NCBI RefSeq assembly: GCF_016026235.1
Contig: NZ_CP065613.1
Length of the DNA stretch: 64,000 nucleotides
Source: Escherichia coli
GTDB taxonomy: Bacteria > Pseudomonadota > Gammaproteobacteria > Enterobacterales > Enterobacteriaceae
Direction: 5' to 3' (one strand)
Positions 29,824 to 36,753 of this stretch are shown in pieces (positions within the stretch are counted from its first letter, which is position 1; the number at the start of each line of letters is the position of its first letter). The translations under genes and the position numbers were made by a program. The notes beneath the pieces are model-generated. The model was not told the origin of the DNA. It did no database searches and worked only from the letters and a program-made list of their open reading frames with translations.

Positions 29824-30345
29824 TCAGCACGCGATATCGAGAGTCAACTGCAGTTGCTCGCGCCAGTACTCGACATTTGCTTCAATAACCGGCTTATCCC
29901 ATCGCCAGCGAGCCATCTCTCTTGCCCCATTGCTGGCTTTTGATTTCCGGTCATCGCGAATGCGACATGCTTGCTCATATTTCTGCTGCTCAGTCAGTTC
30001 ACCGCGAAGCAGACTATCAATGTGCAGGTCGCACCATACGGAGAATTTCGGATCGCACCATCTTGCAAAGGCAACTGATAACTTTGGATGCTGCCATGTT
30101 CCGCCGCCCCTGTCCTTTCGTGCCTTGCTTGTTTTTACATACCCGGAATCACGGGTATGTAGAATTTTCGATGGTTCACCTGAATAAACCTCATCCAGAG
30201 CTCTAACGTATTCGAGAGTTTCAGCGTTGGACAACCAGTGATCCAGACGCTTCCCGAAACGTTTTGCAATATCAGTGGCATTAATCCAGCCATCAGTATT
30301 GAAGCGGATAGGTTCGCCTTTGTAATTCAGTGGAACGATATTCAT
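29824..30345 (-). CDS. KilA-N domain DNA-binding protein
   Basis: 173 aa, MNIVPLNYKGEPIRFNTDGWINATDIAKRFGKR. Confidence 0.6.
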   Translation of the reverse strand: MNIVPLNYKGEPIRFNTDGWINATDIAKRFGKRLDHWLSNAETLEYVRALDEVYSGEPSKILHTRDSGYVKTSKARKDRGGGTWQHPKLSVAFARWCDPKFSVWCDLHIDSLLRGELTEQQKYEQACRIRDDRKSKASNGAREMARWRWDKPVIEANVEYWREQLQLTLDIAC

Positions 30346-30547
30346 AGCGTCTTACCTTTTAGAAAGATGAGCCTGTTCGCACAGAAAAGCCGCCCCGAGA
30401 TGGTCGCCACCATATACGGCAGTTCTCAGGCTCAGCTTTCTGAAAGACTCGGGATTGTTACGCGCTGCGATGCGCGGTTTACTGCGGACATATAAAAGCC
30501 CCGCAAGTGCGAGGCTCATTAAATTGACTTTGTGATTTGCAAAAAAA

Positions 30548-30985
30548 TTATTTCAGGCATTGCGTCCTGATGTATTCCTGCAGGTAGTTAACCTGCGCGG
30601 TTATCCTGTCGATTCCACTTCGGAGACGGTAATAATTGAGTTCAGCATCTGCTGTAAGTCCTGGGCTTTCTCCATAGCCCATGCTGCTGGCTCCGGTCGT
30701 TGACTTTGCACAGGTGGCGGCGACTTGCAGGCGCTTACGACCAGCAGAAACATCAGCACGGAGACTTTCGATAGTCGCGTTAGCATCAGCAAGCTCCTTT
30801 GTGTATCTGGCGTCGAGTTCTGCTACATCACGTTGACGCTTCTGCATATCAGAGATGATGGATGTGGCCTTATCGCGCTGCTCTTTGTAGGTAATGGCGT
30901 TATCACGGTAATGATTAACAGCCCATGACAGGCAGACGATGATGCAGATAACCAGAGCGGAGATAATCGCGGTGACTCTGCTCAT
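30548..30985 (-). CDS. i-spanin Rz
   Basis: N-terminal TM segment then coiled coil; ATGA overlap with endolysin stop. Confidence 0.8.
30601..30792 (-). CDS. o-spanin Rz1, embedded in Rz in another frame
   Basis: Lipobox LVVSAC followed by proline-rich [16 protein letters not shown]. Confidence 0.6.
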
Positions 30986-31515
30986 TGATCTATCCCCCAA
31001 CAGGCTAATGCGCTTTCCTGGTCACGACGAATAACCTGTCCATAGCAGTTATTTGAACGTATGCGGCAATCGCGCCCAACATCTTTTATCCACCAGCGAA
31101 TCGCCTCGCATGCGCCCTTACGATCACCGGCATTCAGCCGCTTATAAAACGTCGACGGGAAACACTTACCGGGGCCAATGTTATAGGGGCAAAATGACGC
31201 TATACCCGCTTTTTGTGGTTCGGTCAGTGGTACTTTAATATTGCGCTCCACCCATGCCAGCGCCTTATCACGTTCAATGGCGTTAACCTGGTCGCATTTT
31301 TCCTTCGACAGTTTCATACCGGGAAAAACGGGTTTACCATCCACCATCGTGGCACCCCGACAGATGGTCCAGATGCCGGAACCATCGCGGTATGCCGTAG
31401 TGTGGTTACCTTCTTTTTCATCCAGAAACTGGTCGAGAATATCAGGCGCAGGCGCACCGATAGCAATCAGTGCCAGAACGGCAGCCGACAGGCCATATCT
31501 GATTTTTACGTTCAT
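30982..31515 (-). CDS. SAR endolysin (lysozyme)
   Basis: 177 aa; hydrophobic N-terminal signal-anchor then T4-lysozyme-like core. Confidence 0.85.
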
Positions 31516-31836
31516 GGATATTTATCAGGATTTATCGGCTTCAAATCCCCGGATATGTTAAATCTTACCTCGCCAGTGATGGGCACTGGCGGGAGGAGGA
31601 TGTCAATCTGATAAACACAGAGGTGACTACGGATTACACAAATCTACCAAAACAAACTTTTGCTGATTTAATCGCACTCAGGCAAGCAGTCGTAGCTCTA
31701 ATCAACTTGTTGCCGGAGAAGGAAAAGGAATTAGTTAAAGCGCTTCTTAACAGAACTGCCGCCGATTTTTCATCATATCCACTGACAGATGACCTTGCGG
31801 ACCTTCCTGAATTAATTGCAGCGTCCGCCATTAAGC

Positions 31837-32367
31837 TTACTGAAGAGATTTACCCTCCTCAAAAATCTTCACAAAATTCCTGCGAGTAACTTCAATGCAA
31901 TAATCGTAAAACGCCGCAAACTGCTCATCGCGGCGTTTTTTTTCATCTTCAGAAGGAATCAGCACCGACAATTTTTTCTCCAGTTTTTCAATGGGCGATT
32001 CAATATCATCTTTTTCTGACCGCAATGCCGTCGGTGGCGTCTTCAGAGAACCAGTAATTCTTCCCGGTAGCTTTCCTTTGTAGGTTATCCACACATTCTG
32101 CGCCTCTAAAATTATGGGGCGCTTTTCCGGCGACTGCTCATCCCCTTCACATAACCCGGCAGCAACATCCAGGAATACCTGTCTGATTCTCATTCTGGCC
32201 GCTGCCTCATAAAACTCCAGCGCGGCACCTTCAACACGGTCCAGCGAGATGTCCAGGTCAAAAATTTCACCGTCAAAGCGTTTTTTGTCCCGTAACGCTA
32301 AAGTTACCGCAACTTTATTCTCAAAATTGCGGATCCCTTTCACAATCAGTTCATAGTTTTGTGTCAT
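31837..32367 (-). CDS. hypothetical protein inserted between holin and endolysin
   Basis: 176 aa; GGGGAG RBS about 9 nt upstream; starts 5 nt after holin stop. Confidence 0.6.
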   Translation of the reverse strand: MTQNYELIVKGIRNFENKVAVTLALRDKKRFDGEIFDLDISLDRVEGAALEFYEAAARMRIRQVFLDVAAGLCEGDEQSPEKRPIILEAQNVWITYKGKLPGRITGSLKTPPTALRSEKDDIESPIEKLEKKLSVLIPSEDEKKRRDEQFAAFYDYCIEVTRRNFVKIFEEGKSLQ

Positions 32368-32371
32368 TGAA

Positions 32372-32587
32372 TTACTCTCCCCGCGCAGCCTTACGCTTGT
32401 CTTCTCTTATTTTGAAATACAGGTTAGTCAGATATGTCAGCAGCCCAAACAGCAGACTCCCCAGCACGCCTATTGCCGCCCACTGAGACGGGGAAACCCT
32501 GTCCAGCAACTGCAGGAACCAGTAGCCCGTTCCCACCGCTGACGTGGTGTATGACACACCTGTTGTGATTTTTTCCATCTGGTCCAT
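32372..32587 (-). CDS. class II holin (phage 21 S-like pinholin), dual start MDQM
   Basis: [63 protein letters not shown] matches recalled S21. Confidence 0.85.
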
Positions 32588-32894
32588 ACCCCGTCTCCCG
32601 TTATCCGGAAGCTGACAACAATAAAAAAGCCACCAGTTAACTACTGATGGCTCTGATAACTCATGCAAGCGTCTCAGACGATCCACTGACACTACCGGTG
32701 AGTTTAACGATACCTTCCATTTGACTGGCTCACTTTTTATGATGATGCCGGTGCATTTATCTCCAGCACCAGACTTTCTATCTCAACGCCATACGTTGCA
32801 TTTTTGGTAATATCCGTCAGCGTCAGTGCATTTAGTCCCACTGCCAGACTGTCTTTTATGGCCTGGAATGCCGGGCCAGTACGATGACGTAGTA

Positions 32895-33083
32895 TCACTC
32901 CGGCTCAGTTGCACCACTGACCACCACATCACCTTCTGCTGCAATCGCCTGCATCAGGGTATAAGGGGTTATGGCCACCGGACTACCAAACGGCTGCCAG
33001 CCCTCTTTCAGTTTATGTGTCAGCTTTTCCGCAAGATCTGACGGCGGCGCCGCCCTGACAACATCATAGTGTTTAAATGCCAT
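32895..33083 (-). CDS. small phage protein (DUF1737-like)
   Basis: 62 aa from MAFKHYDVV; upstream of holin. Confidence 0.5.
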   Translation of the reverse strand: MAFKHYDVVRAAPPSDLAEKLTHKLKEGWQPFGSPVAITPYTLMQAIAAEGDVVVSGATEPE

Positions 33084-33343
33084 GGTTCTTTCCACCATCT
33101 AAAAAATAATTCTTTAAAATACCTGACATGTAATACAGAAAAAGCACAAAACCATACATTAAATAAAAACCTGATTATCAAGCAGATATGCATGGATAAA
33201 CTACAAGACGAGATATAAACCACCCTGCATTTAAATAAACAATAAACAACATCAGAAAAATAATTCTGCTCTATGGTTTACATTCAAAAATATCATTTAT
33301 ACTTTTCAGAACATCACCAGCAAGACATAAACAAGGAAACTAA

Positions 33344-33679
33344 ATGAAGTGGATTGTGATTGATACAGTTATCCAGCCATCATGCGGAATATCTTTTTCA
33401 GTCATATGGAGTAAAATAAAATTAATAATCTGGTATCAATCGGATGCTTTCTTACCTCCTGAAAGTATATTTACACTGACTCACACAGGCATCATGCTCA
33501 ATAACAAAGTGCTACCTGTAACCATTTACAACGTAGTACCATTCAATAAAACATTCTGGAATTTAATCAAAAACAGCCAGGAATGCCCTACAAATACAGA
33601 TAACGTATTGAATGAATGCTTTAATAACCGTTGCACTCTGCAAATATGTCCTTATGGACTAAAACAACAAAGTCCATAA
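33344..33679 (+). CDS. hypothetical Cys-rich protein in AT-rich island
   Basis: 111 aa; AAGGAAA RBS; opposite strand to late operon; 3' end inside a hairpin. Confidence 0.4.
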
Positions 33680-34054
33680 GGAGTTTACTCACATCTGACA
33701 AAATCAATATAAACAGCCCCTCCGGAGAGGGGCTGGAGAGTGGCGCTATGTGCCATTGCATGGTGCCGGGTGCCTCCCGGTGAATTCAGTACCAGCACCT
33801 GAATCCGCGATTATCCCATATACCTACTCGCTGATTGCCCCTCCGCACAGGGGGATTCACCATGCCAGTTTCTTTTAACAAACTCCCCGCAAACCAGACA
33901 ACAGTCAACCGCCTGAATTGTGAAGTATTTAAAAATTTCTCCCGCTAACTGATACCCGGCTAACAGTCTGGCGTTTTCTTTTTCAGCAACGGGAAAGCAA
34001 CAACCCTGTTATCGTGTCGTCTGCTCTTCCTGATAAGCTAATGGCGGTTTGTGA

Positions 34055-34130
34055 TGGTGGCCCTTGCTGGATTTGAACCAGCGACCTGGCGATTATGAGT
34101 CGCTCGCTCTCACCACTGAGCTAAAGGGCC
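34055..34130 (-). tRNA. tRNA with CAU anticodon (Ile2-type or Met)
   Basis: 76-nt cloverleaf: acceptor GGCCCTT/AAGGGCC, T-loop TTCAAAT, encoded CCA; close to recalled E. coli ileX. Confidence 0.85.
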
Positions 34131-34273
34131 GGGAGCAGAATAATAACGGTCCGTAATTAATTCCGCAATAAAAAACCCGCTCGGCGGCGGGTTGTAGAAA
34201 CTCTTCTAACGTCAGGCATAAAACGCCCATAGTTATGACGAATTTACCACAGATTCCGGAAAAATCAACCTTG

Positions 34274-35095
34274 TTACCTAGTTACCTTTTTTAACTGCCG
34301 CTCAGCCCATGCTTCTTCAATATCAAACCGGGTCACCAGCGCATCATAGAATTTCTTAACTGTTTTTTCCCATGACGCGCGTGTTATCTGGTTTGTCACC
34401 TCGCATATAGCATTAAATGCCTCCGTTGATGGTAGTCTTTCATAGCCACGACCACCACAACGCTGGCAGTCTCTGATAACAGGCATACCACGTTTTACCG
34501 ACTCTTCACGATGAATGGCGACACCACGCCCACGGCAATCCTTACAGGCGGTGGAAACCTCACCCTTTCCGCCACACTCCGGACAGGCAACTTTTACCAC
34601 CTCCCTGACTTTTTTCCATTCTTCCCAGTAAGACGGATACACACCTTTCGTACACTTTGCCCATACCGGCGGCTTACCATCCGGATACTGGACCTTGTTT
34701 GTAAAAACTACGCTTTCAATAAATTTTTCCCCATAGCAACAAGGGCACTGCTTTTTACTCGCTGCGCTGCGGGCATAATCCTCAAAAGCGTACGAAGCCA
34801 TAATGCGCATCACTACCGGTTTTATTTCTGCCGGAAGTTTTCTCAACGCCGCCACACGATCGCACCGACTGAGTGCATAATCAGCCAGTAATTCTGTTGC
34901 CCGCGCCCTGTCATTCATACTGATGCCCATTTTCCCCAGGAACGCAGAAAACCCCATCTCAGCCCGATTCTGTGTCATGCCCTGCGCGGCCATCACATCA
35001 GTGATACTCAGCGCATCTTTTGACGTTGAGGCCGATGCATCGGTCAGGCAAGGGGATTTTGGGGAGTAGTATTTCGGTAAATCTTCCAGTTTCAT
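34274..35095 (-). CDS. late antiterminator Q-like protein
   Basis: 273 aa with Cys clusters CPCCYG and CPECGGKG; followed by tRNA and lysis genes. Confidence 0.8.
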   Translation of the reverse strand: MKLEDLPKYYSPKSPCLTDASASTSKDALSITDVMAAQGMTQNRAEMGFSAFLGKMGISMNDRARATELLADYALSRCDRVAALRKLPAEIKPVVMRIMASYAFEDYARSAASKKQCPCCYGEKFIESVVFTNKVQYPDGKPPVWAKCTKGVYPSYWEEWKKVREVVKVACPECGGKGEVSTACKDCRGRGVAIHREESVKRGMPVIRDCQRCGGRGYERLPSTEAFNAICEVTNQITRASWEKTVKKFYDALVTRFDIEEAWAERQLKKVTR

Positions 35096-35466
35096 TTTTT
35101 GACCTGCTCTTCATGCATTATGGGGTAAATCTTCACCCCCAGACGTCCTCCAGATACTGGCTGACCACGAACGATATTGATTTCATCAAACTGCTCATCG
35201 TCCATTAACACTCCCGCATGTGTCAGTGCATCCAGTGGTGCTTTCAGGATATTGTCCAGGTCACGACGGCGCTTATCCGGTGGCTCTGCAATAATCTTTA
35301 TCGCCAGTCTTCCGGACAGGCTTAATTTCAGTCGCTGCTGACGGACAATAAGCGCCACATCCCGGCGATAACGCTCACCGGCTTTTGATACAAAATATGT
35401 GTTGTCACGACGTCGCCAGTAAGTATTCACCGTCGGCGGATAAGGTAAAATAAACTCATGGCGCAT
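35092..35466 (-). CDS. rusA: RusA-family Holliday junction resolvase
   Basis: 124 aa, MRHEFILPYPPTVNTYWRR...RRDLDNILKAPLDAL. Confidence 0.9.
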   Translation of the reverse strand: MRHEFILPYPPTVNTYWRRRDNTYFVSKAGERYRRDVALIVRQQRLKLSLSGRLAIKIIAEPPDKRRRDLDNILKAPLDALTHAGVLMDDEQFDEINIVRGQPVSGGRLGVKIYPIMHEEQVKK

Positions 35467-35723
35467 CAGCGCAGCACCTCCTGCACCAGTTTTTCAAACT
35501 TTCCGACTCTGGTTTCCAGCTCTGCCACACAGTCCACCAGCTCATCTACTGCTTTCTGTGCGCGATGCTTCGCCTGCATCAGTTCCCGAAGCGCGGGTAC
35601 CATATCTTTACGGATAGCATCTTTTGTTATGCCCGTTTTTTCGAGTTGTTCAGCATGACGCAGCATTTCCTGCGCGTGTTTACGCAATTGTTCAGGGGTA
35701 AAAGTCATTGTCTGGTTGTTCAA
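35466..35723 (-). CDS. hypothetical coiled-coil protein
   Basis: 85 aa between helicase and rusA. Confidence 0.5.
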   Translation of the reverse strand: MNNQTMTFTPEQLRKHAQEMLRHAEQLEKTGITKDAIRKDMVPALRELMQAKHRAQKAVDELVDCVAELETRVGKFEKLVQEVLR

Positions 35724-36753
35724 AAGAAACGCTCCATCTTACTGCTGTCAGTTCGTTTATTACTGTATCTGCGCGGATTGCCGGGCTTCATGGGAGTGGA
35801 AAGCACCCGTGCACTTTCCTGGTCCACAGGCAGAAAATGTCCGTTATAAAAACGCCGGTAAATCGTTCCCAGAGAACCGTTACGTTGTTTCGTGATATTG
35901 ATTTCTGCGATGCCCCTGGCCTGCGTATCCGGGTTGTACACTTCATCCCTGTAAAGCATCAGAATGATGTCTGCATCCGCCTCTATTTCTCCGGAATTTT
36001 TCAGGTCTGAGTTCATGGGACGTTTATTGGGTCTGGACTCCACACCGCGGGAGAGCTGGCTCAGCGCAATCAACGGAAAACCACCGGATTTTGCCAGGCC
36101 TTTAAGCCCCTTTGAGATTTCACCCACGGCAAGGTCATGACGCCCCGTGGTTCGGGTTTTTATCAGCCCGAGATAATCAACCACCACCAGCGCCGTTTCC
36201 GGATGTTTAATCAGATGGTGTTTCGTTGTTGCGCATATCTCATCAATGGTCAGGTTCGCCTGGTCCACCATCCAGATATTGCGCCCGGTCATCCGCCCCA
36301 CCCCTTGTGAGAAACGCGCCCAGTCTTCATCTTCAAAGTGAGCCACAGATTTCAGGCGTGATACTGGCATCCCTCCAGCCGCAGACACCATACGTTCACC
36401 AATCTGGATGTTCGCCATCTCCATGGTGAACAGAAGCACACCATGCCCCTGCTCAGTCACCTTGTCGATGATGTCCAGCGCAAGTTCGGTTTTCCCCATC
36501 GAAGGACGAGCCGCAATAAATACCAGGTCGCCGGGCTCCATGCCGCCTGTTTTTGCGTCCAGTTCATCAATACCGGTCATCAACGTCCTGGATTTCTCCA
36601 GTCCCTGATTCCGGCATTCAACACGCTCAACCACCTCCGGAAGCACATCATCAATATGTACCGACTGAATAACGCCCTTTTCCGTCGACAATGAGGCCAT
36701 CATGTTCTGTGCATCCTTAAGAGCATCTTCAGCTGCTTCACAGGTATGCGCAT
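35720..36753 (-). pseudogene. DnaB-like replicative helicase, C-terminal part (split by IS600)
   Basis: Walker A AARPSMGKTELAL; first 16 residues of ORF come from the IS600 end. Confidence 0.8.

Follow-up and report, generated by a model that had tools for sequence, protein, structure and literature searches.

Lysis cassettes of the phage 21 type are expected to carry the holin gene directly before the endolysin gene, and this is indeed the arrangement of the prototype, in which S21 abuts R21. The window analysed in this work, i.e., a stretch of 64,000 nucleotides from Escherichia coli (contig NZ_CP065613.1), harbors a cassette of this type in which the direct order is not found, since 856 bp lie between holin and endolysin. 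An earlier note, made on the letters of the window only, had given the order of the prototype correctly and had described an ORF of 176 codons lying in this interval as an unknown gene inserted into the cassette. The question raised by this locus is what this gene is, which part of it is really inserted, and what its product might do. The cassette and the hairpin preceding it are organized as follows:

32626..32654, minus strand: terminator-like hairpin (12 pairs and a T run) upstream of the holin
32372..32587, minus strand: class II (S21-type) holin of 71 aa, whose dual-start motif is MDQM (M1/M4); matched in PHROG
31837..32367, minus strand: 176-aa long-form YdfR-family gene (Pfam DUF1327, phrog_2091)
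30982..31515, minus strand: endolysin of the lysozyme family, 177 aa (phrog_7, 'endolysin')
30548..30985, minus strand: Rz-type i-spanin, whose start ATG overlaps the endolysin stop (ORF and translation)
30601-30792: Rz1-type lipoprotein ORF embedded in the i-spanin, with the lipobox LLVVSAC in its translation

The holin ORF ends at 32372 and its true start, placed by homology, is the ATG at 32587. The protein is 77.5% identical to S of phage 21, it matches phrog_9876 and phrog_20 ('holin'), and identical copies are labelled 'class II holin family protein' in RefSeq. The ATG of the 176-aa ORF is located 4 nt past the TAA of the holin and is preceded, about 9 nt upstream, by GGAG; the earlier reading of an ORF with a ribosome-binding site immediately after the holin is thus correct, and so is the distance of about 320 bp that it gave between this ORF and the endolysin, which measures 321 bp (31516-31836) up to the endolysin ATG at 31515. 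The endolysin is 33% identical to R21 across the catalytic domain and has an Ala/Gly-rich, hydrophobic N-terminus, which by eye resembles a SAR domain, so that SAR behaviour is putative. Identical or similar copies of the spanin are annotated as 'lysis protein' or 'endopeptidase Rz'. In related cassettes, the junction between endolysin and spanin represents a second insertion point (L002 and L007), occupied by ant in Stx2 phage 86 and by several small ORFs in PhiR5_1; in the window, R and Rz overlap, without any insert.

The hairpin at 32626-32654 is a strong one and precedes the start of the holin by about 40 nt. It would suit the role of a tR'-type late-leader terminator through which the Q-modified polymerase reads, and its placement agrees with the annotated pR'/terminator layout of phage 21; the Q gene is located at 34274-35095. 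The region between Q and the holin contains further elements. A full-length match to the STnc100 sRNA (Rfam RF02076; 132 bits vs. a gathering score of 47, E 6e-30) is found at 33705-33894 on the minus strand, in the interval that separates the Q antiterminator gene from the holin, and a tRNA with anticodon CAU (34055-34130, minus strand), detected by both ARAGORN and Rfam, lies just 3' of the Q gene, a position at which related prophages carry up to four tRNAs (L003). An iraM-like gene, encoding a putative anti-adapter protein IraM (NCBIfam NF007393, 162 bits vs. a cutoff of 121), is located at 33344-33679 on the plus strand, between Q and the holin and opposite to the late operon.

Two of the checks that the earlier note had proposed, a profile search and a comparison of the cassettes of related prophages, identified the gene. 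Residues 1-112 of the 176-aa protein correspond to Pfam DUF1327 (PF07041; E 9e-40, model positions 1-92 of 93), phrog_2091 covers the protein over its full length, and the exact sequence is present on 463 contigs under the NCBI name 'MULTISPECIES: YdfR family protein [Enterobacteriaceae]'. The ORF therefore almost certainly belongs to the YdfR (DUF1327) family, of which it is a long form. As regards its position, the Qin prophage of E. coli K-12 shows the same order, with the holin (essD/essQ) followed by ydfR, the lysozyme gene rrrQ and rzpQ; the core DNA (the first 340 nt of the gene) was retrieved by megablast in 4044 out of 5426 complete E. coli genomes, and a DUF1327 gene accompanies this type of holin in 101/427 phage records (24%), with marked differences between phage types among the records that possess the holin (Stx1a, 41/47; Stx2c, 15/17; Stx2a, 2/124). 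The YdfR family is the usual occupant of the slot between class II holin and endolysin in E. coli lambda-like prophages, and the gene of the window is one that was already known and named, lying in its usual place, rather than a new lysis component. What survives of the 'unknown gene inserted' is that, in comparison with the prototype of phage 21, an extra gene for a soluble protein is present; it is neither unknown nor unusual. The earlier note had also admitted that the ORF might prove to be a common conserved member of this type of cassette with a known function. A common conserved member it is, but none of the searches described below assigned a function to it. Few prophage genes of E. coli are as widespread as those of the YdfR family.

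The family is small (73 clusters among 1.84 billion representative proteins), and every named member or locus that was encountered belongs to Escherichia or Shigella. The 176-aa form and a 183-aa form, the latter on hundreds more contigs, span E. coli, Shigella, E. albertii, and E. fergusonii. Lengths of 103, 114-116, 176, 183, 211, 268, 296, and 329 aa were observed for the YdfR-type forms. The protein of the window does not have the length and the C-terminus typical of the canonical YdfR (103-116 aa, ...SLKTPPEF/ESQP), by which PGAP recognizes a complete member, and carries a tail of 64 residues in their stead. Six weak matches to residues 7-58 of the core were found in P0192, a giant repeat protein of 3128 aa (E 2.9e-7 overall and 32% identity in a search of representative proteins); this resemblance may be due to chance or to a common small beta-sheet motif.

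The 176-aa protein can be divided into three parts, encoded as follows:

32152..32367, minus strand: core of YdfR (residues 1-72), with three beta strands and, after them, a long helix; common to K-12 YdfR
32032..32151, minus strand: residues 73-112, which close the DUF1327 region according to the alignment
31840..32031, minus strand: C-terminal extension, residues 113-176, helical/coiled, terminating in ...DEKKRRDEQFAAFYDYCIEVTRRNFVKIFEEGKSLQ

In the core, 55 of the 72 residues (76%) are identical to those of K-12 YdfR. The second part is present in the common short forms of 114-116 aa and absent from K-12 YdfR. The AlphaFold2 (AF2) model has a pLDDT of 74-92 across residues 1-75, and its confidence falls below 50 for residues 76-176. 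The highest Kyte-Doolittle mean over 19 residues is only 0.83, so that no transmembrane segment is recognized, as the earlier note had also perceived; a signal peptide is likewise absent. Searches for more distant relationships gave little else. Foldseek comparison of the model with PDB and BFVD returned nothing below E 0.01, sequence search of PDB gave no match for either the 176-aa protein or the product of the small ORF described below, and NCBIfam has no family for either ORF. Similarly, neither of them matched the PADLOC defence models, to which related long forms were matched only at E 0.006 or higher; Pfam recognized DUF1327 alone in a 296-aa relative, and no Rfam RNA family was found at 31516-32367.

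The comparison with a short cassette (L005), which encodes a YdfR of 116 aa, allowed the inserted part to be delimited. Homology between the two cassettes extends from the holin to position 32032 and resumes at 31542, and the 489 bp lying between these points (31543-32031) stand where L005 has 51 bp. The elements involved are the following:

31543..32031, strand not applicable: 489-bp indel module, delimited by blastn against the short cassette L005
31908..31943, plus strand: terminator-like hairpin with a 10-bp stem, a 12-nt loop, and a U8 run (dG -14.6 kcal/mol, z -2.7)
31623..31889, plus strand: convergent small ORF, 88 aa if read from GTG (phrog_2572, E 8e-53)
31543..31593, strand not applicable: conserved leader that separates the small ORF from the endolysin start

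The edge of the module within ydfR falls exactly at codon 113. The module contains the last 64 codons of ydfR, in frame, together with the convergent small ORF and a palindrome at 31571-31591. A match spanning at least 80% of the holin-endolysin interval occurs in 282/5426 complete genomes and in eight phage records. The real insertion is this 489-bp module, which is rarer than the common ydfR core. The genome of CFSAN029787 has an 856-bp interval identical to that of the window, whereas the identity of the flanks is only 97%; the region 30000-36000 of the window is not covered to 80% by any complete genome.

The identical copy of CFSAN029787 and near-identical ones are annotated by PGAP/RefSeq as pseudogenes ('YdfR family protein, incomplete, missing C-terminus'). 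The variation of the tail among relatives points to a different interpretation. The tail is maintained in frame in the relatives of 183 aa (seven more codons) and of 211 aa (35 more codons in all), the differences consisting of a 7-codon deletion, corresponding to the 21-bp deletion that distinguishes the haplotype of the window from the 183-aa form, and of a 28-codon insertion, both of which are multiples of three. Moreover, the tail was found, at 56-66% identity, on proteins devoid of DUF1327 (P0187, P0161, P0189, and P0193): in P0161 (181 aa), it is joined to another N-terminal domain; in P0187 (209 aa), it represents the N-terminus and is followed by a large domain; P0189 and P0193 are short stand-alone forms of it. 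Since its indels are in frame and it occurs on other proteins, the tail is a real coding sequence, and we conclude from these sequence comparisons that it represents a genuine mobile protein module. It is quite likely that the full-length 176-aa protein is real and translated and that the pseudogene call of PGAP is wrong. As the long forms are systematically treated in this way by PGAP and the tail is a conserved, shuffled module, these calls deserve review.

Other arrangements of the same parts were observed. In L017 (positions 48-1443 of the Logan contig ERR11440797_19244), the slot contains, after the holin, P0187, a separate DUF1327 gene of 75 aa, and a convergent ORF of 95 aa; parts that the window joins in a single gene are thus separate here and follow one another in the opposite order. 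In L018 (2501-5030) and L019, P0161 lies directly 5' of an unrelated lysis cassette (Phage_holin_8, Phage_holin_3_7, and a GH108 endolysin), and the tail thus travels with more than one type of lysis region. In one STEC genome (L013, 3209-5073), an IS element encoding an rve-family transposase of 404 aa is located inside the long ydfR, the 86-aa ORF being intact.

The convergent small ORF, which the earlier note had placed in the gap as a weakly supported ORF of 88 aa with a GTG start, is present at 31623-31889; it does not lie wholly in the gap, since its last 53 bp (31837-31889) extend into the 3' end of the 176-aa ORF. In all the relatives examined, it encodes 86 aa and begins two codons later, with an ATG located 5 nt past a GAGG Shine-Dalgarno sequence. 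In the window, this ancestral ATG has become ACG (31629-31631), and the in-frame GTG that remains overlaps the Shine-Dalgarno sequence; the poor start that had been noticed is thus explained by the mutation of the ATG, and the small ORF of the window is probably impaired and, judging from its start region, probably poorly translated. The hairpin at 31908-31943 begins 19 nt past its stop codon, within the 176-aa coding sequence, and might represent its terminator. The product is acidic (pI 4.6) and is modelled by AF2 as three helices with a mean pLDDT of 70, a model for which Foldseek gave no match in PDB. The members of phrog_2572 all come from Escherichia, except for a truncated Salmonella fragment, and the ORF occurs in three E. 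coli haplotypes (at least 85% identity), always beside a long ydfR. The label 'DUF1823' carried by this ORF in the PhiR records is not supported, as Pfam gave only insignificant matches to ABATE and DUF1823. In the stretch that precedes the small ORF, the promoter scan revealed no match to the sigma-70 consensus; by eye, only a weak TTATCG-16-TATGTT can be recognized inside the conserved leader.

On the opposite strand, an ORF of 65 aa (31634-31831, minus strand; pI 10.2) runs in the direction of the lysis genes from an ATG located 5 nt past the ydfR stop, and it is open in every haplotype. It has no Shine-Dalgarno sequence and no PHROG match, for which reasons it ranks below the 86-aa ORF and is probably a shadow ORF. 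The dN/dS values (0.34-0.61 for the small ORF vs. 0.21-0.53 for the antisense frame) rest on just 12-15 substitutions between haplotypes, a number that does not permit a choice of strand. On balance, the small ORF is probably a gene in the relatives.

The leader of about 50 bp that precedes the small ORF contains a palindrome (CGCCAGTG-n5-CACTGGCG, 31571-31591) and has folding z-scores of -3.8 and -4.0. It is kept in three types of module (including those of L007, at about 2516-2643, and of L017, at about 1444-1560) and is absent from the short ydfR cassette. The ORFs located behind it are the 86-aa one in the window, the 104-aa orf6 of Stx2 phage 86, and the 95-aa ORF of L017; a possible homology among these three convergent ORFs was rejected by both BLASTP and hhalign. 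The element may be a common leader, a promoter, or a site at which the late transcript is processed.

The first biochemical lead on YdfR, that is, the binding of RNase E, dates from 2026 and was the only literature retrieved on a hot spot or a function in this slot. Gopel et al. (RNA Biol 2026; PMC13232886) recovered K-12 YdfR in a two-hybrid screen and reported, on the basis of two-hybrid assays and co-purification, that it binds the catalytic N-terminal half of RNase E (Rne 1-597/598). Residues 1-72 suffice for the two-hybrid signal with RNase E and RNase G, full-length YdfR giving a signal with one Rne construct only, and Strep-tagged YdfR co-purifies Rne 1-598 and DNase-resistant nucleic acid, RNA being co-purified (PMC13232886). 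These data were obtained by overproduction; overexpression alters few transcripts, and the authors leave the function open (PMC13232886).

On this basis, the following scenario can be proposed for the window. The 489-bp module would have replaced the normal 3' end of ydfR, bringing a helical tail of 64 residues and, with it, the convergent small gene, equipped with a Shine-Dalgarno sequence and a terminator of its own. Since the long ydfR presumably belongs to the Q-dependent late operon and starts 4 nt past the holin stop, its product, a soluble protein of the cytoplasm, would accompany the lysis proteins in the late phase of the lytic cycle; this co-expression is highly probable. The partner bound by the core would then be the N-terminal, catalytic half of RNase E, perhaps along with RNA, and the protein would act on the turnover of RNA in late infection, outside the holin-endolysin-spanin machinery, with the variable tail adding a partner or a targeting function. 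A late soluble accessory protein with a core that binds RNase E or RNA and a variable tail represents the best overall explanation, to which we assign roughly even chances. Its last two steps are more tentative. Of the 72 core residues, 17 differ from K-12 YdfR, and the tail is unrelated to the K-12 end; the binding of RNase E by the copy of the window, suggested by analogy with K-12, is a possibility with somewhat less than even chances, and a role in RNA turnover, suggested in the same way, is rather doubtful.

Three other explanations have to be weighed against this one. The strictly conserved position between holin and endolysin, together with a start only 4 nt past the holin stop, which suggests coupled expression, might indicate that the protein regulates lysis, tuning the firing of pinholin and SAR endolysin, for instance if it binds the holin's cytoplasmic tail or retards the release of the endolysin; this would account for its retention in lysis cassettes. 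The occurrence of the tail, on another N-terminal domain, directly 5' of the unrelated holin_8/holin_3_7/GH108 cassette (L018 and L019) is in line with such a role, and, as cited in PMC13232886, a K-12 ydfR mutant was scored in an envelope-integrity screen. However, the phenotype could be due to a polar effect on the neighbouring lysozyme gene, the protein has neither a transmembrane segment nor a signal peptide, and phage 21 and 76% of the phage records with this holin lack the gene, which is therefore dispensable for lysis; a regulator of lysis is thus improbable. A lower probability still has to be attributed to the possibility that the insertion of the 489 bp destroyed the 3' end of ydfR and that the 176-aa frame is an accidental read-through without function. 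The 'incomplete, missing C-terminus' flag that PGAP puts on identical and near-identical copies, the mutated start of the small ORF, the 21-bp deletion in comparison with the 183-aa form, and the IS that interrupts the gene in L013 might all be read as signs of decay. Yet both indels of the tail are multiples of three, the tail is kept at the protein level on unrelated N-terminal domains and as the N-terminus of a 209-aa protein, and the exact protein (on its 463 contigs) and the 183-aa form (on hundreds more) are shared by several species of Escherichia and by Shigella, which makes a decaying remnant very unlikely.

The third explanation regards the locus as a hot spot of exchange whose occupants are accessory cargo (defence, anti-defence, or exclusion), the small gene being a moron expressed by the lysogen, like bor of lambda. 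The highly modular tails, with forms ranging from 103 to 329 aa in length, the shuffled domains, with core and tail split or reordered at some loci, and the association of a single conserved 50-bp leader with three convergent small ORFs that are not related to one another are what would be expected in this case, as is a small ORF with an acidic product (pI 4.6) and, judging from the sequence pattern, a terminator-like hairpin of its own. On the other hand, no form gave a PADLOC match below E 0.006, no sigma-70 consensus promoter precedes the small ORF, whose ATG is lost in the window, and the literature search found no support; such cargo remains unlikely, even if somewhat less so than a lysis regulator. 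A further possibility, which we regard as improbable, is that the slot is an unrecognised exchange site at which a conserved YdfR core binding RNase E is combined with interchangeable tails or domains, fused or split and in either order, and with unrelated small convergent genes that all lie behind the conserved 50-bp leader with its hairpin, forming two-part accessory modules. If this were true, pairs of genes for RNA turnover, defence, or anti-defence would be embedded in the lysis cassette and would have been partly mis-annotated as pseudogenes.

Returning to the late soluble accessory protein as the preferred explanation, the new points that emerge are modest and concern the exact limits of the 489-bp module, a pseudogene call that is likely wrong, the loss of the start of the small ORF, and the leader common to unrelated ORFs. 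The modular exchange observed in the slot makes it a cheap place in which to seek accessory functions of Shiga-toxin phages and other lambda-like phages.

The closest known counterpart is YdfR of the K-12 Qin prophage (P76160, 103 aa), which belongs to the same family and occupies the same position between class II holin and lysozyme. The two proteins are unrelated past approximately residue 72, where that of the window adds the 40-residue segment of the 114-116-aa forms and the 64-residue tail; moreover, unlike the gene of the window, K-12 ydfR overlaps the start of the lysozyme gene and is not accompanied by a convergent small ORF. The cassette of phage 21 is like that of the window in its dual-start class II holin and in the succession of holin, lysozyme-family endolysin, and nested spanins, and differs from it in that the stop of S21 and the start of R21 have no gene between them. 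The Escherichia phages 2H10, PhiR63_1, PhiR5_1, and PhiR12, as well as STEC prophages, carry the 489-bp type of module at 93-95% DNA identity, with PHROGs 2091 and 2572. The relatives with the 183- and 211-aa forms keep the ATG of the small ORF and have, respectively, seven and 35 more codons than the window in the coiled part of the tail.

As for the small ORF, the morons of the lambda bor type are small genes that neighbour the lysis genes, are read from the other strand than the late operon, and have their own terminator, and bor is annotated in this orientation in phage 21, too. Unlike bor, the small ORF of the window has neither a lipoprotein signal nor a recognisable promoter and is embedded in the cassette, where it shares 53 bp with ydfR.

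Finally, several phage proteins act on RNase E, namely T7 gp0.7, phiKZ Dip, and T4 Srd, which act early or bind the scaffold region. None of them is known to be related to YdfR in sequence or fold. If the result obtained with the K-12 protein carries over to the window, the point in common would be that of a phage-encoded binder of RNase E in the lytic cycle; unlike these three proteins, K-12 YdfR has been reported to bind the catalytic half of the enzyme.
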